64,000 nt of DNA from an uncultured beta proteobacterium (lineage in GTDB: Bacteria > Pseudomonadota > Gammaproteobacteria > Burkholderiales > Burkholderiaceae_C), in contig CAVUEP010000013.1 of the NCBI GenBank assembly GCA_963740395.1, positions 7,290-71,289 on the forward strand. The letters run 5' to 3'. The notes under the pieces are model-generated. The model was given only the letters and a program-made list of their open reading frames with translations, had not been told where the DNA came from and ran no database searches. A program made the translations under genes and the position numbers. Positions 3,094 to 51,218 of this stretch are shown one piece after another; position 1 is the first letter of the stretch, and the number at the start of each line of letters is the position of its first letter.

Positions 3094-3861
3094 TCACTGC
3101 GGGTGCCACTCGAAACAACGCTCGCCGAGCGTGAACACCGCCACCCCCGAGGCCTGGCTCGGCAAGCGAAAGAGCAACTCACCGTCGGGGGCGACGACAC
3201 AGCTGCCCCCACCTTCGACGCTCTCTTCCGGCCGATTGAGTGCGTTGGGCCAGTTGGTTTGCACGACATGCGCCCGGGTCGCGACTGCGAGCCGCTGGAT
3301 GTCGCGCACATACTCGGGTGGATCGGTCCTCGGCGTGTCGGGATCCTGGCGCAGCGCACCCGGTACGAAGATCAGGTCGACGGCCTGCGCTTCGAGTTGG
3401 CCACTTACCAAGTCGAGGTCGCCAACTTCCCGGCAGATGACGGCGGAGCAGCGCAGCCCGTGCAAGATGCCGACCGGCCGGGCGGACCCGCGGGCAAAGA
3501 AGGTCGCCTCCGCTGCGGTCAGACCCTGCTTGGCGATGACGGCGCAAGTACTACCCCGTTCGTCGATCAGCAGATGCGAGTTGTACTTGGCGCCGTCATC
3601 GTCGAAGGTCGGCGCGCCCACCGCAATGCCCAGCGAGAGCTCGGCGCAGTGGGCCTGGAGCTCCTGAACTGCGGGCAGGACCCGCTCGGGGACGGCTTCC
3701 ACCCCGATCTTCTTGTGAAAACCCGTGACGGCCAGTTCCGAGAAGCCGCAAAGACGCGCCTCGCGCGTGCGCGCCAGCGACATCGCGCGGCGGATTGCAG
3801 CCACGTTCTCCGGCGTCGTCCAGTGCATCGCGATTTGAGCGATGGCCACGCGGACCGTCAC
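3094..3861 (-). CDS. Carbon-nitrogen hydrolase (nitrilase superfamily) protein
   Basis: This is the C-terminal 255 aa of the composite 645-aa track ORF, starting VTVRVAIAQIAMHWT. It shows FSELAVTG and the catalytic-Cys region GLRCSAVICRE. The GTG start overlaps the upstream stop as GTGA. Confidence 0.7.
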   Translation of the reverse strand: MTVRVAIAQIAMHWTTPENVAAIRRAMSLARTREARLCGFSELAVTGFHKKIGVEAVPERVLPAVQELQAHCAELSLGIAVGAPTFDDDGAKYNSHLLIDERGSTCAVIAKQGLTAAEATFFARGSARPVGILHGLRCSAVICREVGDLDLVSGQLEAQAVDLIFVPGALRQDPDTPRTDPPEYVRDIQRLAVATRAHVVQTNWPNALNRPEESVEGGGSCVVAPDGELLFRLPSQASGVAVFTLGERCFEWHPQ

Positions 3862-5536: not shown

Positions 5537-6151
5537 TCAATCGCGGACCAGGCGCCAACCGAAGCCGATCAGGAAAACACCCGCCAGCCGCTCGAGCCAG
5601 CGCGCGGCCGCGCGGTGCGCCCGCACCTTGGCGGCCACCGCGTTGGCAAAGGCACACAGGCTCAGGCAGTACAGCGCCGTGATGACCGCGATCGTCACGG
5701 CCATGGCGGCGAACGTCGGCAGGCCGCGGTGCGTGGCCGGGTCGATGAAGAGCGGAAAGAAAGCCATGTAGAAGACGATCGCCTTCGGGTTCAGCAGCGT
5801 GATGAAGAAGGCCTGGCGCGCATAGTGGCGCGGCTGAATGCGCACCGGCGAGGCACTGCCGTCGCCACGCGAGAACAACAGGCGCAGCCCGATCCAGGCC
5901 AGGTAGGCCGCCCCCGCGACCTGCACCGCCTTGAAAGCCAGAGGGTAGGCCGCGAGCAAGGCCGCGACGCCGGCCACGGCCAGCCACAGCAGGACCTGGT
6001 CACCGACGATCACGCCCAGCGTGGCCGCCGCGCCGGCGCGAAAGCCGCCCTTGCCGGTCGAGGTCAGCAGCGCGAACGTGCCTGGCCCAGGCAGCGCGAG
6101 GAAGATCAGGATGGCGGCGCAGAAGGCCGTGAAGTCGGTGATGCCGAACAT
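5537..6151 (-). CDS. LysE/RhtB family amino-acid exporter
   Basis: 204-aa polytopic membrane ORF. The N-terminal LALPGPGTFALL motif is typical of the LysE family. Confidence 0.8.
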   Translation of the reverse strand: MFGITDFTAFCAAILIFLALPGPGTFALLTSTGKGGFRAGAAATLGVIVGDQVLLWLAVAGVAALLAAYPLAFKAVQVAGAAYLAWIGLRLLFSRGDGSASPVRIQPRHYARQAFFITLLNPKAIVFYMAFFPLFIDPATHRGLPTFAAMAVTIAVITALYCLSLCAFANAVAAKVRAHRAAARWLERLAGVFLIGFGWRLVRD

Positions 6152-6221: not shown

Positions 6222-7310
6222 ATGAACCCAGAGATTCCTGGCACCCCCACCAGCGCGGAGCCCGACGCAGCGCCCGCCGTGGCTGGCGCCGATGCGCCGC
6301 AGGCTGCCACGACCGAAGCCTCCCCCTTGCCGTCGGGTGACGCCCCCGCGCCCGACGCGGTGCCCGACGATTTGCGCGAGCTGCCACCCGATGCGCCCTC
6401 TGAGGCGACACCCGCTACCCCGGTGGAGGCCGGCGAGAGCGCCGTCGCGCCTGCAGCCGCCGCCGAAGCAGGCAAACCGGGGCTGACGCCGGCTGCCTGC
6501 GCCACCCGCTTGGCCGAGTTGTTCCCCGCGTTGTTCATTGCGCAGGGTGCGCCCGGGCCGGCCAAGCCGATCAAGCTGCGCATCCACGCCGACATCCAGG
6601 CGCGCGCGCCGGGCGTCTTCAGCAAGCGCGTGCTGGGGCTTTTCTTCAGCCGCTACACGACGACGAACGCCTACCTGAAGGCGCTGGCCGCGGCGCCGCA
6701 CCGGTTTGACCTCGACGGCGAGCCCGCGGGCGAGATTGCCGCCGAGCACCGCCAGGCCGCGACCGAGGAACTGGCGCGCCGCCATGCCCTGGCCGCGCAG
6801 CGGCGTGCGGCGCAGCGCCCTCCTGCGCGACGCGAGGCACAGGCACCTGAAGGCGCATCAGCGCCAGGCGAGCGGCGCGAGCCGCGCCCCGCGGGTCAAC
6901 GCGATCCAGGCCAGGACGCCCGCCTCGCCGAGCGTGCGGCCCGGCCACAGCGCCCCCCGCAAGCGCCGCGCATGCGCGACGACCGGCAGCGGCCCGAGCG
7001 TGCAACTGGCGCACGGCCGCCTCGCAGTGGCGAGCAAACAGCGCCGCACCGCCGCGCCGAGCGTGCAACGCCAGTGCGCGACACCGCCCCCCCTGCCGCA
7101 GCCCTGCCCACGGATCCGGCACAGCGCGAACGCGCGATGCTGCTGCGCAGCTTCGAGTCCAGCCCCTTGAGCAAGGCCAATTTCTGCGCCCTCAAAGGCC
7201 TGAGCGAGGCGACGCTGGATGCCGCGCTCGAGCAGGCCCAGGCGGAGCGGGGTGGGCACGACGCAACGTCCCATGCGCCGCCGCCTCAACGACGCAGCGG
7301 CAGACGCTAG
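6222..7310 (+). CDS. ProQ/FinO domain RNA-binding protein with Ala/Pro-rich N-terminal and Arg-rich C-terminal extensions
   Basis: The internal ATG (aa 68 of the track ORF) gives MNPEIPG. The core is LAELFPALF...PIKLRIHADIQARAPGVFSKRVLGLFFSRYTTTNAYLKAL, the ProQ/FinO fold signature. Confidence 0.7.
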   Translation: MNPEIPGTPTSAEPDAAPAVAGADAPQAATTEASPLPSGDAPAPDAVPDDLRELPPDAPSEATPATPVEAGESAVAPAAAAEAGKPGLTPAACATRLAELFPALFIAQGAPGPAKPIKLRIHADIQARAPGVFSKRVLGLFFSRYTTTNAYLKALAAAPHRFDLDGEPAGEIAAEHRQAATEELARRHALAAQRRAAQRPPARREAQAPEGASAPGERREPRPAGQRDPGQDARLAERAARPQRPPQAPRMRDDRQRPERATGARPPRSGEQTAPHRRAERATPVRDTAPPAAALPTDPAQRERAMLLRSFESSPLSKANFCALKGLSEATLDAALEQAQAERGGHDATSHAPPPQRRSGRR

Positions 7311-8760: not shown

Positions 8761-8933
8761 TGCGTTTCCTTCGGCGTAGGTAGACGAGAAGTGGCCGTCG
8801 CGCGTGGACCTCTGATCGCAATATGCGTGGACAGCCTCACCGTGCCGGCTTGAAGGGCAACAGGGTTGCCTTGCACAAGGCACGGCGTCATCGCACTCTC
8901 GGCAGACGCGCATGCCGCCGGCCCTGACAGCGG

Positions 8934-9533
8934 CTACAGGCGATTGGCCGCCGCACGGGCAAGTTCTTCGAGCGCCTTGAGCGCCTCGGCTCTGTCGCGC
9001 TGCGACAACTGACTCGAGAACAACCGCACCTGGCGCTGTCCCACCTGAACCACGACCTGTGCCACGTCGTTCAGGATCCCGCGCGCCTCGTCCTTGCGTT
9101 CGACGATCGCCATGGCGCGATCCCCGACGCCGCTGAGCGGCTCGAAGCGCACTGCCTGCTTCGCACTCGGCCGCATCGGGTCGATAGCGCCGTCAACCAT
9201 GCCGCGCGACTCGTCCGCCCAGGACGCCAGTTCGTGGTTCGAGTACTGCACGTAGAACGTGCCGCCAGGATGACCCCGAACGCAGGTCACGATGCCATGC
9301 TTTTCAAGGTTGCGGTCGAGCTGGCCGGGCTTGGCCTGCGCGAACACCTTGCGCACCTGCGCGTCAGAGACCAACGTGCAAGGGTTGCTTATGTCGCCCT
9401 TGCCGGCCTGGGCCACTGCAGTCGGCGCCACCGCGGGCTGCGAGGTCGAAGTCGGCGCCTCTTGCTTCGAGCACGCGGCCGCAATGAACGCCGTGACCAG
9501 TGCGGCGAAGAGATGAAGGCGAATCGAATCCAT
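8934..9533 (-). CDS. Hypothetical lipoprotein
   Basis: The start is at aa 131 of the track ORF: MDSIRLHLFAALVTAFIAAACSK, a lipobox of type IAAAC. 199 aa with no recognisable domain. Confidence 0.55.
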   Translation of the reverse strand: MDSIRLHLFAALVTAFIAAACSKQEAPTSTSQPAVAPTAVAQAGKGDISNPCTLVSDAQVRKVFAQAKPGQLDRNLEKHGIVTCVRGHPGGTFYVQYSNHELASWADESRGMVDGAIDPMRPSAKQAVRFEPLSGVGDRAMAIVERKDEARGILNDVAQVVVQVGQRQVRLFSSQLSQRDRAEALKALEELARAAANRL

Positions 9534-9601
9534 TTGAATCTCCAGATGGGCTGACTCCTTGGGCCTGTGCGGCAACCCCGCTCGCACCGTGTGCCGTCGG
9601 T

Positions 9602-27751: not shown

Positions 27752-27880
27752 ATGGGCCGCGCTCGCGTGGCCGCGTCTGCAATAGCCGCAAGACCGCGCT
27801 GCGCCAACCGCGGCCAGCGTGTCGCCCGGGCACAGCATTCCGCACTACCGATTCAGGATCATTTAACAGAGGAGAATGAC

Positions 27881-28432
27881 ATGCGCAGCACCGCTCTGAA
27901 AACGCTCGCCACTCTTGGCCCGCTCGCCGCAGCCGGTCTACTTTCCTGCGGCGCACTTGCCGCCGACATGAATAAGGCCGTGCTGACACCGCCGGCTGCC
28001 TTCGGGACGCCAAGCACCGCGCAACCTGGTTTCACGCCACCCGCCGCGTTGACGCCGCCCGCCGCTAAGACCGCGCCCAGTCCAAGCGTCACGCCAACAC
28101 AAGGTCCGCAGCCACTACGCCCCAGTCTCAATGCGCAGGACAAGGCGCAACAGGTGGGTATCGACAAGTCTTATGCGGTCAACATCCGTGTTCTCGAACA
28201 ACGGGTGAGCGATCTGGAACAGAAGTTGGAGAAACTTCAACGGTCGGCTACGACGCAGACCGCACATACGCACTCGTACCGAGCTCCGATGTGCCAGACG
28301 TTTGTTACCCTGCCCAACCTGCAGACGGCACTCGGCGATACCGGCCGCTACCCGTCCGGAACTGGCGTCTGTTTGAATCGCTTCTCCACGGCGGGCGTTC
28401 CCGATGCTCAGACGTCTGTACCGGGAAAGTAG
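27881..28432 (+). CDS. Secreted or lipo-protein of unknown function with Pro/Ala-rich and coiled-coil segments
   Basis: The ATG is preceded by GAGGAG. The signal reads MRSTALKTLATLGPLAAAGLLSCGALA. A coiled-coil-like stretch reads RVLEQRVSDLEQKLEKLQ. Confidence 0.45.
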   Translation: MRSTALKTLATLGPLAAAGLLSCGALAADMNKAVLTPPAAFGTPSTAQPGFTPPAALTPPAAKTAPSPSVTPTQGPQPLRPSLNAQDKAQQVGIDKSYAVNIRVLEQRVSDLEQKLEKLQRSATTQTAHTHSYRAPMCQTFVTLPNLQTALGDTGRYPSGTGVCLNRFSTAGVPDAQTSVPGK

Positions 28433-28523
28433 GGCCTGATCGGACCGGGTAGGCCCGGACGATCGGGCGTCATCGCGCGCAGGAGGGTCTGCCGCGCAAT
28501 GTCTTGCACGCGACGCTCCCGCG

Positions 28524-28594
28524 GAGACTGGCGGGCCAGCCACGACGCTCAATGAATGTCCCTCGAACCGATCGCCAGGTTGCCCAGCCACGGC
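28524..28594 (-). repeat. Orphan copy of the dnaE2 3' end plus downstream sequence; direct repeat of 36597..36658
   Basis: 28549..28594 versus 36613..36658 gives 41 of 46 identical positions by hand alignment, including the TGA stop. In the dnaE2 frame it encodes PWLGNLAIGSRDIH*, compared with the intact PWLGSLATSSRDFH*. A shared gagactgg lies just beyond the stop in both copies. Confidence 0.6.
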
Positions 28595-28716
28595 CAACAG
28601 GCGCGTGCAAAGCAGTTGGGCTGTCTGGTGCTCGCCATGGGCCCCCTTCATGCCGACGCCTCCCACGCGCTGGCCGGGGGCAGTGCTCGTTGTTGAAGCC
28701 TTACCATGCCTCAGAC

Positions 28717-45144: not shown

Positions 45145-47307
45145 TCAGACGCGCCCGCCGCTCGTCGGCACCGAGCGCAGGTCCTGGGCCACGCGCCCTT
45201 CGCCGAGCACGATCACGCGCGACGCGCTGGCGATCGTCTCGGGCCGGTGCGCGACGATCACGCGCGTCAGCGAAAGCTGCCGCACCTGCTGATTGACGAT
45301 GCGCTCACGGTCGACGTCGAGCGCGCTCGTCGCCTCATCGAGCAGCAGGATGCGGGGGCGCTTGTACAGGGCGCGCGCCAACAGCAGCCGTTGCTTCTGG
45401 CCGCCCGAGAGGCTGGCGCCCATGTCGCCGACCAGCGTGTGGTAACCCATCGGCATGGCCTCGATCTCGTCATGCACCGCGGCCATCTGAGCACATTCCG
45501 TGATCCATTCGCTGTCGGGCGCATCATCGAAGAAGCAGATGTTCTCGGCCACGGAACCGGCCAGCAGCGCGTCCTCCTGCATCACCGTGCCGACCATCGC
45601 GCGCCAGCGCGCCAGCCCGAGTTGGCGCAGCGGCACGCCGCCCACGCGAAACTCACCGGTGTCCGGCGCGTGAATGCCCAGCATCAATTTCAGGAGCGTC
45701 GTCTTGCCGCAGCCCGAGGGGCCGACGATGGCCACCGACTCGCCCGGCTCGATCGTGAAATTGATGCCCTTCAGCACCTCGGGCTCGCCGTCGGCATAGC
45801 GAAAGCTCACGCCGCTGACTTCGATGCGCGGCGGCGCCAGCGCCTCGGCGGCCAAGTCGCCCCCCTGCCGCGGCAGCCCCTCGTCCTCGGGCGCAGCCAG
45901 CACGATGTCGGCAAGCCGCTCGCCCTGCAGGCGCAGCATGCGCAACTCGACCGCCTTGTCGATCAAGGCGCTGATGCGCTGCGCAAACTGCTCCTTGAAC
46001 GCGATGAACGCGAACAGCATGCCGACCGACAACTGCTGATCCATCACCAGCAACGCCCCCAGCCAGACCACCGCAATGCGCTCGACGCCGAACAGCAGCC
46101 GGTGCAGAACGGAGAACATCAACTCGAGCTTGCGCGTGGCCAGGTCGGCATTCATGGTGTCGACGACACGGTTCATGAAGCGCGCCTGGCGATCGGCTTG
46201 GCGGTTGAACAGCTTGATCGACTGCACACCGCGCAGCGATTCGAGAAAGTGGCTCGACTGCCGAGCCTCGTGCACCAGCGCCTCCTCGGTGGCCTCGCGC
46301 AGCGGCCTGAAGAAAGCCCAGCGCAGGGCGGCATAAGCCGCCACCGCCGCCATCACCACCGCCGCCAACGCCACGCTGTAGATCAGCATCATCGCCAGCG
46401 TGACGACGACCAGCAGGCCATCGAGCACGGCTTCGATGAAGTGCGTGGTCAATGTCTTCTGGATCTGCTGTACGGTCGCGAAGCGAGACCAGACGTCGCC
46501 GGTGTGCCGCTTCTCGAACCAGGCCATCGGCAGGCGCAGCAGGTGCGCAAACACGTTCGACAGCCACTGCAGGTTGAGTGTGGCCGACAGATGCAGAACC
46601 GACCAGGACCGGATCGCCGCGGCGCCGACCTGCAGCAAGACCAGAAGACCGAAACCCAGCACCAACGTCAACAGCAGGTCGCGGTCGGCGCTGACGAGCA
46701 CCCCGTCGACGACCCACTGCAGGAAGAACGGGCTCAACAGAACGAAGGCCTCGAGGCCCGCCGCGACCAGGAAGATCTGCGCCAGCGAGCGCTTGAGGCC
46801 GCGCACCGGCCCGAGCAGTTGCTTGAGCGTGACCGTCTGCCGCTCGGTCTTGGCCTTGAAGTCCGCTGCCGGCGTCAGCTCGAGCGCAATGCCGGTGAAG
46901 TGGCGCGACAGCTCGGTCAGCTTCATGCGCCGCACGCCACGCGCGGGGTCGTGCAGCGTGACTCGGTTGCCCCGCACTTCGGTCAGTACGACGAAGTGAT
47001 TCAGGTCCCAATGCAGGACGCACGGCAAGGCCAGTTGGGCCAACTGCTCGGGTTCGGCGCGCAATGCGCGAGGGTTGAAATTCAACTGTCCGGCCATGCG
47101 CACCAGGTCGGCCATCGTGGCGCCCTTGAGCGACAACGAAAAGCGCCGGCGCAGCGTCGGCAGGTCGGTGCGGTAGCCATGCGCCGCCGACACCATCGCG
47201 AGACACGCCAGCGTGCACTCGGCCGCCTCGGTCTGCAGGATCATCGGCGCGCTGTGCCCGCCGAGCCAGCCAGCCAGCGACAGATCCAGCGAATCCGGGC
47301 TCGCCAT
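45145..47307 (-). CDS. Peptidase C39 domain-containing ABC exporter (bacteriocin/peptide processing and export, CvaB/RaxB-like)
   Basis: The N-terminal C39 domain shows ILQTEAAECTLACLAMV (catalytic Cys) and HWDLNHFVVL (His). A six-TM domain follows. Walker A is GPSGCGKTT, the signature is LSGGQKQRLLLARA, and Walker B is ILLLDEATSALD. The ATG overlaps the HlyD stop as TGATG. Confidence 0.85.
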   Translation of the reverse strand: MASPDSLDLSLAGWLGGHSAPMILQTEAAECTLACLAMVSAAHGYRTDLPTLRRRFSLSLKGATMADLVRMAGQLNFNPRALRAEPEQLAQLALPCVLHWDLNHFVVLTEVRGNRVTLHDPARGVRRMKLTELSRHFTGIALELTPAADFKAKTERQTVTLKQLLGPVRGLKRSLAQIFLVAAGLEAFVLLSPFFLQWVVDGVLVSADRDLLLTLVLGFGLLVLLQVGAAAIRSWSVLHLSATLNLQWLSNVFAHLLRLPMAWFEKRHTGDVWSRFATVQQIQKTLTTHFIEAVLDGLLVVVTLAMMLIYSVALAAVVMAAVAAYAALRWAFFRPLREATEEALVHEARQSSHFLESLRGVQSIKLFNRQADRQARFMNRVVDTMNADLATRKLELMFSVLHRLLFGVERIAVVWLGALLVMDQQLSVGMLFAFIAFKEQFAQRISALIDKAVELRMLRLQGERLADIVLAAPEDEGLPRQGGDLAAEALAPPRIEVSGVSFRYADGEPEVLKGINFTIEPGESVAIVGPSGCGKTTLLKLMLGIHAPDTGEFRVGGVPLRQLGLARWRAMVGTVMQEDALLAGSVAENICFFDDAPDSEWITECAQMAAVHDEIEAMPMGYHTLVGDMGASLSGGQKQRLLLARALYKRPRILLLDEATSALDVDRERIVNQQVRQLSLTRVIVAHRPETIASASRVIVLGEGRVAQDLRSVPTSGGRV

Positions 47308-48554
47308 CACACGCGAGCGGCCATGCCCAGCAGGGGCTCGATCAACCACTCGTAGAGCTTGCGCCGCTCCACGGGCACGTCGGCGTCGAGCTGCATGCCG
47401 GGCGCCAGCGGTTGCAAGACCCCGTAGGCCGACACCTGCTGGCGCTCCAGCGCCACCGTGATGCGGTACATCGGCTCGCGCGCCGACCCCGCCCAGGGCT
47501 GCCCAGCCAGTTCGGCCGGCTGCAGCGGCGCCAGCGACACCTGCTCGATGCGCCCATGCTGATGGCCGAATTTCTGGTAGGCGAAGGCGTGGTAACGCAG
47601 CAACACCGACTGCTCCGCGCGCAGGAAGCCCACGGCACTCGACGGCGCGTACAGGTGCGCCTGCAGCGCCGAGCCCGCGGGCACCAAGCTGGCCAGCGTG
47701 GAGGCCGCAGCGACCGTTTGCCCTGCAGAGACCAGCACCGCGCTGACGACGCCGTCCTGTGGCGCGCGCACCACCAAACTGCGGCGCGCTTCGCTCTCTG
47801 CCTTCATTTGCGCCAGTTCGGCCCGTTCGCGCTCGATCTCGCCCTGCCTCGCGCCGGACTGCAGGGGCAGGTCGCGAAGCTGCGCTTGCGCAGCGGCGAT
47901 CTCGCGCTCGTGCGCGCTGCGCTGACGCAGCTGCGCCTGGCGTTGCGTGCGCAGCCCCAGCAACTCCTCGGTCTTGGCCTGGACTTGGGCCGACGAGACG
48001 AAGTTGTCGCTGCGCAGCGACTCGAGCCGCGCCAACGCCTGTTCGGCCAGCGCGATCCGCTGCGTCAACAGGGCCGACTCGGCATCGAGGCTACCGCGCT
48101 CCTGCTGCAGGTCGGCACGACGGCGCACCAATGCGGCCTCCTGGCTGCTGAGCAAGGCCTGCTGTTGCTGCGCCGCAGCGCGCAAGCTCGACTCGCGGTC
48201 CGCCAAGGTGCGTTGCACCGCGGCCTGCGTGTCGCCGCCGGCGGCGGCGCGGTCGAGCGACAGCACGAAGAGCACGTCGCCGGCACGCACGCTGGCGCCT
48301 TCGGCCACGCGCCGCTCCAGCACCAGTGCATCCTGGGGCGGCGACAGACGGATCACGCCGCTGTCGGGCACCAGCACGCCACTGACGCGCACCTTGCGCG
48401 TGTACTCGCCGAGCGCCAGGAAGGCGCCCACGGCCAGCACCGCAACGACCACCGCGGTGGTCAGCACGGTCAGCGAGAGCGGGCGAACCAGCTGAATCTC
48501 ACCGACCCACGAGGTCTGCTGGGCGTCCAGCGCCTCGCGGCGGAAGATGTTCAC
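47307..48554 (-). CDS. HlyD-family membrane fusion / secretion adaptor protein (CvaA-like)
   Basis: It starts MNIFRREALDAQQTSWVGEIQLVRPLSLTVLT, followed by a single TM segment, a long coiled-coil and a beta-barrel C-terminus. The GTG start overlaps the small-ORF stop as GTGA. Confidence 0.8.
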   Translation of the reverse strand: MNIFRREALDAQQTSWVGEIQLVRPLSLTVLTTAVVVAVLAVGAFLALGEYTRKVRVSGVLVPDSGVIRLSPPQDALVLERRVAEGASVRAGDVLFVLSLDRAAAGGDTQAAVQRTLADRESSLRAAAQQQQALLSSQEAALVRRRADLQQERGSLDAESALLTQRIALAEQALARLESLRSDNFVSSAQVQAKTEELLGLRTQRQAQLRQRSAHEREIAAAQAQLRDLPLQSGARQGEIERERAELAQMKAESEARRSLVVRAPQDGVVSAVLVSAGQTVAAASTLASLVPAGSALQAHLYAPSSAVGFLRAEQSVLLRYHAFAYQKFGHQHGRIEQVSLAPLQPAELAGQPWAGSAREPMYRITVALERQQVSAYGVLQPLAPGMQLDADVPVERRKLYEWLIEPLLGMAARV

Positions 48555-48712
48555 CAGCCCTTGGTTGGCAGCGACGTGCCGCCGCTGACTTGGCGCAATG
48601 CCGGTGCGTCGAGCTCAATCGGCTGGCGCACTGGCTGAGCTGGCGACTCGGCGCGAGTCTTGCCGACGATGCGTTGAACCCAAAGCCCGACAGTCTTTTG
48701 TACCTTGTTCAT
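48551..48712 (-). CDS. 53-aa double-glycine-leader precursor peptide (predicted 8-aa mature product TSLPTKGW)
   Basis: It is absent from the ORF track because it is under 60 aa. I translated it base by base: MNKVQKTVGLWVQRIVGKTRAESPAQPVRQPIELDAPALRQVSGGTSLPTKGW*. GGAG lies 5 nt upstream of the ATG. The stop is coupled to the HlyD start as GTGA. The leader has hydrophobic residues at -4, -7 and -12 relative to the GG. Confidence 0.6.
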   Translation of the reverse strand: MNKVQKTVGLWVQRIVGKTRAESPAQPVRQPIELDAPALRQVSGGTSLPTKGW

Positions 48713-48781
48713 ATGCGCTCCTGATTGGCTGGCGTCGTGGAATCGACACCGGATTCCAGCAGCCTTCGGGCGCGCACGTAA

Positions 48782-48797
48782 CTGTCAACCTTTACAG
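48782..48797. promoter_or_regulatory. CTGT-N8-ACAG inverted repeat (lux-box-like or LexA-box-like) upstream of the peptide gene
   Basis: ctgtcaacctttacag lies 5 nt after the luxR-type stop and 70 nt upstream of the peptide ATG. On the minus strand it contains TTGACA. Its 12-nt core recurs at 49546..49557. Confidence 0.4.
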
Positions 48798-48802
48798 GGT
48801 CC

Positions 48803-49516
48803 TCAATGAAGGAGCCCGAGCCTCAGGGCCTTTACCACGGCAACATGTTTCGAATTGCAGTTCAGCTTCTGCATGGCGTTCTGCAGGTGGAACACCGCCG
48901 TGCGGTCGCCGATGCCCAGGATCGTGCTGATCGCGCTCGTCGTCTTGCCGTCCATGGTCCAGCGCAGGACTTCGAGCTCGCGCGGCGTCAAGGCCGGCAG
49001 CTCGGGGCGGGCACCCTCGGACACCAGCACCCGCATGGCCGTGTCCTGGGCGTGCACGGCAAATAGCTGCAAGTCCGCAACGATCCGTGTCAGTTCGGCT
49101 CCGTCGGACGGCAGCGCCTGATCTCGCTCAACGCCCAAGAGAAAGTGTCGCCCCTCGGGTAGATGCAGCGCCATCGCGATGCCGTTCCGGTACCCGAACT
49201 GGGCCTGACGCTCCCACAACTCCGCGGAGTTGGCGTTCACGTAATTCCGTTGTCCCCAGATGATGGGCACCGTGTGGCGCTTGCAATGCTGTGCGATCGG
49301 ATCGCGCTTGCTGATGCTCAGGTCGTCGAATGTCTCAACGTACGCAGCAGGTGCGTTATGTATCGAAACGAACTCAGGCTCACGGCCCAGGCGGTCGACC
49401 GCAACCGTCGACGCGACCCTGTCGAAACCCAGGCGCTGGGCAAAGCGAATCACCACCGACCTGAACTGGTCCTGGTTCTGCGCTTCCAACACGGATTGGT
49501 AGTCGCCTTGCAGCAT
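48803..49516 (-). CDS. LuxR-family regulator with an N-terminal autoinducer-binding-type domain and a C-terminal GerE HTH (LuxR solo; no luxI in the window)
   Basis: The HTH reads LTPRELEVLRWTMDGKTTSAISTILGIGDRTAVFHLQNAMQKL. The ligand-domain block PAAYVETFDDLSISKRDPIAQHCKRHTVPIIW has exactly the TraR spacing for positions 57/61/70/71/85, which read Y, F, D, P, W. Confidence 0.8.
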   Translation of the reverse strand: MLQGDYQSVLEAQNQDQFRSVVIRFAQRLGFDRVASTVAVDRLGREPEFVSIHNAPAAYVETFDDLSISKRDPIAQHCKRHTVPIIWGQRNYVNANSAELWERQAQFGYRNGIAMALHLPEGRHFLLGVERDQALPSDGAELTRIVADLQLFAVHAQDTAMRVLVSEGARPELPALTPRELEVLRWTMDGKTTSAISTILGIGDRTAVFHLQNAMQKLNCNSKHVAVVKALRLGLLH

Positions 49517-49541
49517 TACTTCGCAGTTTCGCCTGGGTTAC

Positions 49542-49557
49542 CCGGCAACCTTTACAG
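49542..49557. promoter_or_regulatory. Second copy of the CAACCTTTACAG half-motif, between the luxR-type gene and the divergent 124-aa gene
   Basis: ccggcaacctttacag shares 12 of 12 nt with 48786..48797, but the left arm is CCGG rather than CTGT. It lies 26 nt upstream of the luxR-type ATG. Confidence 0.3.
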
Positions 49558-49637
49558 CTATCGGCGGGCCTGATCTTTGTCCACACTCTTTGCCATCGGA
49601 GCCACTCGGTTCCGTTTTCCAACGGCAAGGAGTGCAC

Positions 49638-50012
49638 ATGAATTCATCCTGGACTGTTCGCGCGTGGCCGGCCCTATTGTGGCAGGCCGGTAACCCCTCG
49701 CAACTGCAATTCGATCACGTTGACACGCAGGTCTTCCCGTCCGACCGGGACGATGCACCGGTCTGCGGCCAAACTGTCTGGGCCGGCCCGCTGGACGACG
49801 GCCAGGTTGGCGTGGCCTGGGATTGGGTGCAGGTGTCCCAAGGCGTGGTCGCGATGGCCGACCCGATGTGCGTCGTCAGCAATCTGCGCCTGATCGGCCC
49901 GCAGGGTGAGGTGCTGACGGCCTGGGAGTCCGCGCGGCACCTGAACCAGATCGTCTACGGCCTGCCCTGGCAAGGCGAGGTGCAACGCGCCCTGCACCAC
50001 CTGAACGACTGA
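49638..50012 (+). CDS. Hypothetical 124-aa cytoplasmic protein, divergent from the LuxR-type gene
   Basis: The ATG is preceded by AAGGAG and gives MNSSWTVRAWPALLWQAG. The protein is Trp-rich, with no signal peptide and no recognised domain. Confidence 0.4.
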   Translation: MNSSWTVRAWPALLWQAGNPSQLQFDHVDTQVFPSDRDDAPVCGQTVWAGPLDDGQVGVAWDWVQVSQGVVAMADPMCVVSNLRLIGPQGEVLTAWESARHLNQIVYGLPWQGEVQRALHHLND

Positions 50013-50051
50013 GCGTGCGTCGGCGCGCGGGGCCGCAGGCCGCGGGCGCCC

Positions 50052-51218
50052 TCACTTCAATGCGGCTGTGCGCAGCTGGCGTGACACGAAGGTCAGGCCG
50101 GCCGCGACGACCAGCCCGCACACCAGCAGCGGCACCGCCATGTCAGGCACGCCGATGGCCTCGCCCTTGAGTACACGGTTCATCAGCGTCACCTGGCCAA
50201 GCGCCGGCACGGCCAGATGCCAGGGCGCCTCGCCGCTCTGGTTGAACACGCTCACCAAGGGCAGCAGTGACACGCCCAGAATGACCACGGTGTTGTTGGC
50301 CTGCGCCTCCTTGAAGGTTCTACAGCGAATCGCAATGGCCATCATCAGCGCAGCCAATGCGGCCGCCAGCGGGGCCAGCAGCGCCAGCATCAGGCCCACC
50401 TCGCGCAGTCCGAACTGGAACATCGCGGCCAGCGTCTCGCTACGCAACAGGTACTGCGCGGGCAGGAACGAGAAGCAGCTGAGCAAGGCGATCAGCATGC
50501 CCACCGACGAGACGGCGCCCCATTTGCCGAGCACCAGCGACAGCCGGGACGCCGGGTTCATCAGCAGCGGCTCGAGCGAACCGCGTTCGCGCTCGCCGGC
50601 CGTGGTGTCCAGGGCCGCATTCAAGGCCCCGTACAGCACCGCCATCAGGACGAAGAAGGGCAAGATGCTGGTCAGGCGCGCGGCGCGCGACTGCGGATTG
50701 GCCAGGTCGCGGTCCTGCACGTCCAGCACCTCCAGTGTCGCGGGGGCCACCCCGCGCAGTGCCAACCGCAGCACCGCTTGCTCGTTGGAGAAGCCACGCA
50801 GCAGCCGCGTGAGCCGGCCGACGCTGCCGCTGGCGCGTTGGTTGGCGCTGCTGGAGACAATCTCGACCAGCGGCGCCTCGCCACGCGCCAACTCCGCTTC
50901 GAAGTCCTGGCCGACGACGAGCACCGGGTCGCCCAGCGATTGGTTGGTCAGCCGCTGCTCGTAGTCGGCGGGTGCCGCATTGACGCGATAGGTCTGGCGC
51001 AACAGGTAGTTCTGCAAAGTAGGCGCCTGCTCGACGCCCGCGACGAGCACGGTGCGTTCCTCGGCGCGCTTCTCGATGCCGGCAACGAGCGCCGACAACG
51101 CGATCAGCACCAAGGGCCCGATCGCCACCGACGACAGCAGCACCACGACCAGCGTGCGCCGGTCGCGCAGGGCGTCGAGCAGCTCCTTGCGAAAGACGAT
51201 CCACGCGTTCATGACCAT
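50052..51218 (-). CDS. ABC-2 type transporter permease (NatB-like)
   Basis: It starts MVMNAWIVFRKELLDALRDRRTLVVVLL. It has a large extracytoplasmic loop and then five C-terminal TM segments. An alternative ATG at 51212 overlaps the ATPase stop as ATGA. Confidence 0.7.
   Translation of the reverse strand: MVMNAWIVFRKELLDALRDRRTLVVVLLSSVAIGPLVLIALSALVAGIEKRAEERTVLVAGVEQAPTLQNYLLRQTYRVNAAPADYEQRLTNQSLGDPVLVVGQDFEAELARGEAPLVEIVSSSANQRASGSVGRLTRLLRGFSNEQAVLRLALRGVAPATLEVLDVQDRDLANPQSRAARLTSILPFFVLMAVLYGALNAALDTTAGERERGSLEPLLMNPASRLSLVLGKWGAVSSVGMLIALLSCFSFLPAQYLLRSETLAAMFQFGLREVGLMLALLAPLAAALAALMMAIAIRCRTFKEAQANNTVVILGVSLLPLVSVFNQSGEAPWHLAVPALGQVTLMNRVLKGEAIGVPDMAVPLLVCGLVVAAGLTFVSRQLRTAALK

Follow-up and report, generated by a model that had tools for sequence, protein, structure and literature searches.

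A LuxR/RsaM locus of Burkholderiales with a short double-glycine peptide and its own exporter as a candidate peptide-signalling circuit

RsaM is a dedicated modulator of LuxI/LuxR circuits, which signal through N-acyl-homoserine lactones (AHLs). Such circuits, namely CepI/CepR-BcRsaM of Burkholderia, PfsI/PfsR-RsaM of Pseudomonas fuscovaginae and TofI/TofR-TofM, resemble the locus described here in having a two-domain LuxR protein, an adjoining and separately transcribed RsaM-fold protein, and CTG-N10-CAG boxes both before the signal-production gene and in the regulator intergenic region. Our locus lies in a 64,000-nucleotide (nt) stretch of an uncultured beta proteobacterium (contig CAVUEP010000013.1, positions 7,290 to 71,289), the whole of which we call the window. 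In contrast to the known circuits, no LuxI is found in the window, the lux box precedes a gene for a double-glycine (GG) leader peptide together with genes for an HlyD adaptor and a peptidase-containing ATP-binding cassette transporter (PCAT), and the equivalents of W57 and Y61 of TraR and of Y56 of LasR are replaced. We favor, with moderate confidence, the reading that the locus encodes a LuxR/RsaM-controlled exported signalling peptide. The features of the module, in window coordinates and with the evidence for each, are as follows.

45145-47307, minus strand: exporter PCAT, 720 amino acids (aa); a longer open reading frame (ORF) spans 45145-47349, minus strand, 734 aa (Pfam, NCBIfam)
47307-48554, minus strand: HlyD-family membrane-fusion (periplasmic adaptor) protein, 415 aa (Pfam, NCBIfam)
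48551-48712, minus strand: precursor peptide, 53 aa (ORF, ribosome-binding site, public gene calls)
48578-48712, minus strand: double-glycine leader of the precursor, 45 aa, MNKVQ...IELDAPALRQVSGG (sequence pattern, conservation)
48551-48577, minus strand: core peptide TSLPTKGW and stop codon, with the family motif x-P-x-x-x-W (motif conservation)
48780-48799, minus strand: lux box 2, CCCTGTAAAGGTTGACAGTT, CTG-N10-CAG (uniqueness in the window, conservation)
48803-49516, minus strand: luxR-family regulator, 237 aa (Pfam, solved relatives)
49540-49559, minus strand: lux-box-like element 1, AGCTGTAAAGGTTGCCGGGT (repeated 12-mer, full box in relatives)
49638-50012, plus strand: rsaM homologue, 124 aa, divergent from luxR (DUF4902 matches, profile, fold)

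The module sits between mnmG (43070-45118) and an ABC-2 transporter. All five genes that an initial annotation of this DNA had placed here are present, and the overlaps it described between consecutive stop and start codons hold as well: the peptide stop and the GTG start of the HlyD gene overlap by 4 nt, and the HlyD stop and the exporter ATG share 1 nt, given the 720-aa start at 47307 that the public gene call also uses. Independent gene callers have likewise predicted the 53-aa peptide gene in public assemblies, including the 440-kb metagenomic contig (ENA ERZ25039603 contig_26605) to which the window belongs.

Two groups of LuxR proteins that lack a partner synthase come close to the regulator of this locus. 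A 2023 review of RsaM (PMC10710839) equates DUF4902/PF16245 with RsaM, a regulator of unknown mechanism that always adjoins luxI and/or luxR, and describes a 'type 6a' topology, a rare one, with rsaM and a LuxR solo transcribed divergently and with examples in Pelomonas, Kinneretia, Albitalea, Xenophilus and Thauera. These solos share with our locus the divergent pair, the lack of a nearby luxI and a taxonomy that overlaps in Roseateles/Pelomonas and relatives. In contrast, the passages of the review consulted treat them as LuxR solos and mention neither a peptide/exporter operon nor its lux box. Plant-associated LuxR solos (PipR, OryR, XccR, PsoR) also carry W57/Y61 substitutions, answer a non-AHL ligand and have an S33-family peptidase gene nearby, and peptide-type ABC importers take part in their response. 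They differ in the substitutions themselves (W57M/Y61W, versus Y/F and F/Y here), in having no RsaM, GG peptide or exporter, and in their ligand, a plant-derived ethanolamine derivative.

On the peptide side, the GG pheromones of Gram-positive bacteria (ComC/ComAB, BlpC/BlpAB) likewise involve a GG-leader precursor that is cut and exported by a C39-ABC protein, with a variable core on a conserved leader. SHP/Rgg, PapR/PlcR and ComS/ComR rely on a cytoplasmic transcription factor that is the target of a short C-terminal peptide, and a GG leader is missing from some of the precursors. The receptors of these Gram-positive systems are histidine kinases or TPR-type proteins, whereas the sole regulator of our module is LuxR-type and not of the RNPP/Rgg TPR type, and the module combines a Gram-negative envelope and HlyD with RsaM and a multi-copy motif. 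An RNPP-like logic, in which a re-imported peptide acts on a cytoplasmic regulator, may nevertheless apply here. Among Gram-negative systems, RaxX-RaxA/RaxB (with RaxST) of Xanthomonas is similar in its GG-leader peptide, PCAT and HlyD-type adaptor. RaxX, however, carries a Tyr sulfated by RaxST, acts as a mimic of the plant hormone PSY and is not under LuxR regulation; no sulfotransferase is found among the module genes and three left-flank neighbours (Pfam) or in the public gene calls around the module, and the core in the window holds no Tyr. PatS/HetC/HetR of Nostoc (HetC: PMC10986499) is alike in being Gram-negative and in its active C-terminal pentapeptide, PCAT-type exporter and cytoplasmic DNA-binding receptor, but has a receptor of another family, the motif RGSGR and a role in heterocyst patterning, with no LuxR, RsaM or lux box. 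Colicin V and the class II microcins (CvaC-CvaAB-TolC) share the three-part export logic and GG-leader cleavage. Their toxin cargo, in contrast, is tens of residues long and comes with a dedicated immunity gene, while the cores here are of 7-15 residues or are repeated hexapeptides, and no small membrane immunity ORF lies within the module. The locus thus shows the defining features of no compared family in full. A full-text literature search (LuxR solos with double-glycine peptides, C39/PCAT exporters, peptides made on the ribosome and modified after translation (RiPPs), and these genera) returned no description of a LuxR and GG-peptide arrangement, in agreement with the initial annotation, which had not recognized a described system.

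To place the locus among its relatives, one genome per GTDB species was scanned with the LuxR alignment. This gave 362 relatives, of which the best 80 (58-91% identity) were fetched with their flanks as the loci compared here; all 80 are Burkholderiales of the Rubrivivax/Methylibium/Piscinibacter/Roseateles/Aquincola/Rhizobacter group. Gene content was counted in 67 related species-level loci with enough flank, and flank context was scored over 63 intact modules. Genes for HlyD and the PCAT come directly after luxR in 57 of the 67 loci, and a peptide with a GG or GA leader lies between luxR and HlyD in all but one of these 57 exporter-bearing loci, which bears out the earlier expectation that the LuxR gene and the exporter would prove co-conserved. 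The flanks are less constant. On the left, the ABC-2 transporter and hydrolase are present in 48 of the 63 intact modules and other genes stand there in at least 8; on the right, mnmG is missing in 8 of the 63. The module is intact even where both the ABC-2 flank and the mnmG flank are absent. Since intact modules are found in differing flanks, the five genes travel as a unit and not only as part of a syntenic block.

Inspection of the non-coding segments reveals how this unit may be controlled, through two lux-box-like elements that the initial annotation had missed. Lux box 2 begins 7 nt past the luxR stop and 85 nt ahead of the peptide ATG, and its dyad closely resembles the classical lux box. 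No other CTGTAA-N7-CAG occurs in the 64-kb window, where 0.03 would be expected. About 70 of 81 loci have it as a predicted operator with the consensus (A/C)CCTGTAAGAGCTGACAGT. In 60 loci the peptide start codon follows at a distance of 85-99 nt (median 93, interquartile range 91-95), and 57 of these 60 have a Shine-Dalgarno sequence. Such a box, conserved and kept at a constant distance ahead of the peptide gene, speaks for control of the operon by LuxR. Box 1 lies between rsaM and luxR, 43 nt ahead of the luxR start, and its right half is degenerate in the clade of the window. The 12-mer CTGTAAAGGTTG, which is the left half of box 2, occurs exactly twice in 64 kb, at box 1 and box 2 (0.04 expected), and a full CTG-N10-CAG box 1 (AGCTGTAAACCCTGTCAGGG) is found at the same intergenic place in most related loci. 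A scan for sigma-70 consensus promoters gave none in 45000-50200 and terminators at chance level, and is uninformative.

The divergent gene completes the regulatory side. The initial annotation had listed its Trp-rich, 124-aa product as an unknown, a label that no longer applies. Against DUF4902/PF16245 the protein scores 16.8 bits, below the gathering threshold of 25; sub-threshold DUF4902 matches are nonetheless obtained for 19 of 20 orthologues (best E 2.3e-5), some database homologues carry a precomputed PF16245 match, and UniRef names one of them DUF4902. A profile of the orthologues has as its best PDB sequence match 4o2h, BCAM1869 (E 0.011). An AlphaFold2 (AF2) model built from a 38-sequence alignment reaches a pLDDT of 84.9, and a Foldseek search of the PDB with this model returns 4o2h_A as the sole significant match (TM-score 0.72/0.66, probability 1.00, E 1.9e-6), the next lying at E 0.3. 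A single-sequence AF2 prediction (pLDDT 50) was discarded and replaced by the alignment-based model. Judged by its modelled fold and these profile matches, the protein is an RsaM homologue. In all 67 loci its orthologue adjoins luxR in divergent orientation across an intergenic region of 73-206 nt, and so has a transcription unit of its own. Because RsaM is conserved here without a nearby AHL synthase, we argue that its partner is LuxR and not LuxI or an AHL.

The regulator itself has both LuxR domains, Autoind_bind (PF03472, 3.4e-22) and GerE (PF00196, 1.4e-16), each above its cut-off, and its nearest solved structures are RhlR, LasR and QscR. Seven of the nine LuxR hallmark residues are kept (the set being W57, Y61, D70, P71, W85 and G113, and E178, L182 and G188, in TraR numbering). 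The two that change do so across the LuxR family of the compared loci, W57 to Y/F and Y61 to F/Y. In LasR numbering, Y56 becomes A/T, W60 becomes Y/F and Y64 becomes F/Y, while D73, P74, W88, the conserved Gly and the three DNA-binding hallmarks are kept. In the TraR and LasR structures, the residues Y56 and W60 of LasR are hydrogen-bond donors to the AHL head group. Residues 61-70, between the W60 and D73 equivalents, form the most variable part of the protein, and residues 104-160 are almost invariant. As read from the alignment, the replaced head-group contacts fit a non-AHL ligand, without identifying one.

No AHL synthase gene is seen near that of this receptor. Searches by tblastn with LasI, TraI and CepI (queries that find each other at 1e-17 to 1e-26) gave no luxI match at E<0.1 within 8 kb on either side of luxR in the 80 loci, so that a canonical pair is not seen. 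The same search found no credible LuxI homologue in the 64-kb window, as the initial annotation had stated. The only match, a weak one to LasI (E 0.012), was rejected as spurious; it falls in a coiled-coil stretch of a secreted Ala/Pro-rich ORF.

What stands behind lux box 2 instead is an export operon. The exporter carries Peptidase_C39 (7e-34), ABC_membrane (5e-38) and ABC_tran (1.5e-32) on one chain, the domain content of a PCAT, and the adaptor matches HlyD_3 and Biotin_lipoyl_2, so that together with the two regulator domains every Pfam assignment of the initial annotation is confirmed. The best NCBIfam model of the exporter is NHLP bacteriocin export peptidase/permease/ATPase (504 bits), and that of the adaptor is type_I_hlyD (1e-35), both under the equivalog cut-off. 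The C39 catalytic residues Q39, C45, H118 and D134 (734-aa ORF numbering) are kept in 64 of 64 orthologues, which predicts an active peptidase. The GG-leader substrate gene and the HlyD gene lie directly upstream of the PCAT gene with overlapping codons. No outer-membrane channel gene was noticed adjoining the module, though no search was aimed at such a channel.

The precursor, MNKVQKTVGLWVQRIVGKTRAESPAQPVRQPIELDAPALRQVSGG followed by TSLPTKGW, has an AGGAG ribosome-binding site 6 nt ahead of its ATG and matches nothing in Pfam or NCBIfam. Its leader is of the double-glycine type, with hydrophobic V, L and L at -4, -7 and -12 ahead of Gly-Gly, and the predicted cut follows the glycines of LRQVSGG to release TSLPTKGW. 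Across the loci the leader follows the pattern ELDxxxLxxVxGG. Single cores are of 7-15 residues, and nearly all end in x-P-x-x-x-W (LPTKGW, LPKGGW, LPRGGW, APRGGW, SPKGTW, GPNGGW and GPNKYW among others), which can be written as a short terminal motif [L/A/S/G]-P-[K/R/N]-x-x-W, with an otherwise variable core. Close metagenomic relatives (P0121-P0134) show the same division: the leader is 80-90% conserved and the core, as in TSLPTKGW, TSLPVKGW, TTESPNKGW, TTESPFKGW and DGSPQTPTKGW, is variable except for its P, K, G and W anchors.

The motif is often repeated. Of the 66 precursors tallied, 20 contain it 2-5 times, the spacers between copies being unrelated; L069, for instance, reads LPKGTW-ASRSTS-LPKGTW-SATDGRGAETD-LPKGTW, L074 has four GPNGGW copies, and L065 and L066 have four SPKGTW copies each. 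It also survives without a leader. Six exporter-less loci, L035, L039, L042, L043, L052 and L062, keep leaderless peptides of 10-19 aa ending in LPR(N/A)GW, for example MQATHQTQTTTLLPRNGW and MQTMLPRAGW, which follow this lux box with unchanged spacing and have a ribosome-binding site. Two tandem copies are found in L039 (about 6268-6324 and about 6324-6380), and the others lie at 5869-5925 (L035), about 8855-8887 (L042), 3499-3555 (L043), 8863-8919 (L052) and about 8890-8950 (L062). That is to say, since the motif is repeated and outlives its leader, selection acts on the short C-terminal motif itself. The multi-copy precursors would further imply an active product of about the size of the motif. 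Locus L066 (Roseateles subflavus APW6) and its relative L065 differ again: the four-repeat GG peptide at 8822-9022 is followed by a 150-aa ORF (9094-9549) without a transporter. This ORF looks like a remnant of a C39 domain in its sequence, and the two loci appear to hold a decaying or re-wired version of the module.

Taken as a whole, the arrangement suggests a quorum-sensing-type circuit in which the peptide and its own exporter occupy the position usually held by the AHL synthase gene. In such a circuit, the LuxR-family activator would bind the lux box past its own gene and turn on the peptide-hlyD-PCAT operon, and it would probably act also at the second box between rsaM and luxR, steps proposed because the boxes are conserved at fixed spacing. 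The C39 domain would then cut the precursor after Gly-Gly, and the PCAT and HlyD would export the product with an unlinked outer-membrane channel, as expected from the domain content, the conserved catalytic residues and the established mechanism of the PCAT family. The released peptide would be very short, carry [L/A/S/G]-P-[K/R/N]-x-x-W and probably be trimmed to roughly a hexapeptide, since many precursors hold several motif copies with variable spacers. On a plausible route to this product, the PCAT would make the GG cut, trimming from the N-terminus would halt one residue short of Pro, and either the stop codon or a cut following Trp would define the C-terminus. The peptide would act as a diffusible signal, and RsaM, by analogy with AHL systems, would damp or tune the loop.

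Reception is the least certain step of the proposed circuit. The peptide or a derivative may re-enter the cell and bind the atypical LuxR pocket, or LuxR may answer another ligand while an unlinked receptor reads the peptide. The stronger claim, that the exported P-x-x-x-W peptide, or a trimmed or derivatized form of it, is the cognate autoinducer of LuxR and replaces the AHL synthase in a LuxR/RsaM circuit, is one that we hold only tentatively. Several observations weigh against it or against the signalling circuit more broadly. To our knowledge, peptide binding by LuxR pockets is not known, and the module of the window contains no uptake system. Ten exporter-less loci retain LuxR and RsaM, so that LuxR can work without the exporter. 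The near-identical cores TSLP[T/V/N]KGW pair with LuxR proteins only 68-93% identical to that of the window. Covariation of the pocket segment 61-70 with the core motif (partial-Mantel r 0.19, p 0.001) was rejected as evidence of pairing, as control sliding windows (leader, RsaM traits) were often equally 'significant'. Trp is not universal in the cores: in a small subclade (L034, L045, L048, L076 and L077) the ORFs of the GG-leader peptides, about 90 nt past the lux box, contain repeats of LPRVG or LPRVS, which are related to the LPRVGGW of L021 and L063, so that Trp is less constant than Pro and Arg/Lys. Finally, given the broad synteny near the origin, part of the co-conservation is vertical inheritance.

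Some of these same observations would also be expected if LuxR were a solo that eavesdrops or regulates a pathway, responding to an AHL or other small molecule from elsewhere or acting independently of ligand, with the peptide as its output and not its own signal. That output could be a microcin-like toxin, an interference peptide or a mimic directed at a host or partner. We regard this explanation as unlikely on balance, though it accounts for much: LuxR retains D70, P71, W85 and G113 and all three DNA-binding hallmarks, the ten loci just mentioned hold LuxR and RsaM without the exporter, the covariation and close-relative comparisons show no pairing of receptor and peptide, and microcins such as colicin V leave the cell through the same kind of machinery. 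However, two AHL head-group contacts are replaced and no luxI lies within 8 kb, which fits poorly with AHL sensing. A toxin is hard to reconcile with cores of 7-15 residues, predicted to be unmodified and without Cys, or with hexapeptide arrays, both far below known unmodified bacteriocins in size; the five-gene module holds no immunity gene, and at least 8 intact modules do without the ABC-2 transporter that adjoins it here. The initial annotation had offered peptide signalling or a mini-bacteriocin as its two candidates, and its interpretation is supported in part: the link of LuxR to the exporter gains from co-conservation and the lux box, while the mini-bacteriocin loses ground to the short or repeated cores and the lack of an immunity gene in the module.

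A conserved leader, a variable core, fixed anchors and multi-core precursors are together the typical pattern of RiPPs, and the best NCBIfam model of the PCAT belongs to the NHLP bacteriocin exporter family. P-x-x-x-W could accordingly be a recognition or modification site for enzymes encoded elsewhere (Trp cross-linking, prenylation, hydroxylation), with LuxR as the regulator of the cluster. We find this improbable. No modifying enzyme occurs in or adjoining the module, in the window or in the 80 loci, where the neighbours are the ABC-2 transporter, the hydrolase, a Yej-like importer and mnmG, so that the locus does not look like a RiPP cluster. The residue after Pro may be K, R or N and the spacing of Pro and Trp ranges from P+3 to P+6, which argues against one fixed cross-link, and the Trp-less subclade would lack the residue altogether. 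A Lys-Trp cross-link of the streptide/tryglysin kind was considered and rejected separately, as any of K, R, N and T may stand at the 'K' position, the spacing is not constant and there is no radical-SAM gene close by.

The weakest alternative is that the genes have no functional link and adjoin only through family-wide synteny near the origin: the window does cover the chromosomal origin region, with gyrB and dnaN at 60223-63907 (minus strand) and mnmG/rsmG at 42384-45118, which accounts for a large part of the synteny on either side (40 loci have syntenic flanks), but we consider this alternative very improbable, given that the module stays intact where both flanks differ, that a conserved lux box stands at fixed spacing ahead of the peptide gene, that stop and start codons overlap, and that peptide and exporter are kept or lost together, save where leaderless peptides take over.

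The surroundings of the module add some observations in their own right. Adjoining rsaM, the segment 50052-53529 (minus strand) encodes a permease of the ABC-2 type, an ABC ATPase and a secreted alpha/beta hydrolase whose C-terminal domain is TAP-like (S33 peptidase family). A role of this transporter and hydrolase in peptide trimming or self-protection is conceivable. As members of the module they were rejected and are counted as neighbours only, being syntenic in 48 of 63 intact modules and absent from at least 8. Beyond the hydrolase, at 53621-56618, follow a glutaredoxin-like ORF, a thioredoxin-domain protein (574 aa) and a pirin gene, which look like housekeeping neighbours. In locus L004 (1630-7440), and similarly in L018, L024, L025 and L026, a YejABEF-like peptide importer stands to the left of rsaM and replaces the ABC-2 transporter and hydrolase; its parts in L004 are an SBP_bac_5 protein, two permeases and a double ATPase with oligo_HPY. 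This importer is possibly a route of peptide uptake, or a coincidence. Elsewhere in the window, at 27752-31617 (plus strand), lies the secreted Ala/Pro-rich ORF of the spurious LuxI-like match, 226 aa long, and after it one of 1037 aa. Neither appears tied to the LuxR-peptide module, and the larger looks, from its sequence, like a regulator of the SARP/BTAD-AAA-TPR type.

Dozens of species-level genomes from Burkholderiales of freshwater and soil share the arrangement with no luxI nearby, and it crosses a textbook pairing, joining LuxR (the AHL sensor), lux boxes and RsaM to a peptide exported in Gram-positive style by a C39-ABC protein. From the multi-copy precursors and the leaderless variants, a defined small product of roughly hexapeptide size is predicted. 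Were the peptide a signal, it would represent peptide communication in environmental Betaproteobacteria of the Rubrivivax, Methylibium, Roseateles, Aquincola and Piscinibacter group, and if LuxR senses the peptide, the range of LuxR ligands would widen to peptides. Should the peptide prove to be the LuxR ligand, the circuit would contain the first peptide-sensing LuxR-type receptor and would amount to true peptide quorum sensing in Proteobacteria, with RsaM shown to act on the LuxR side and not on AHL synthesis.

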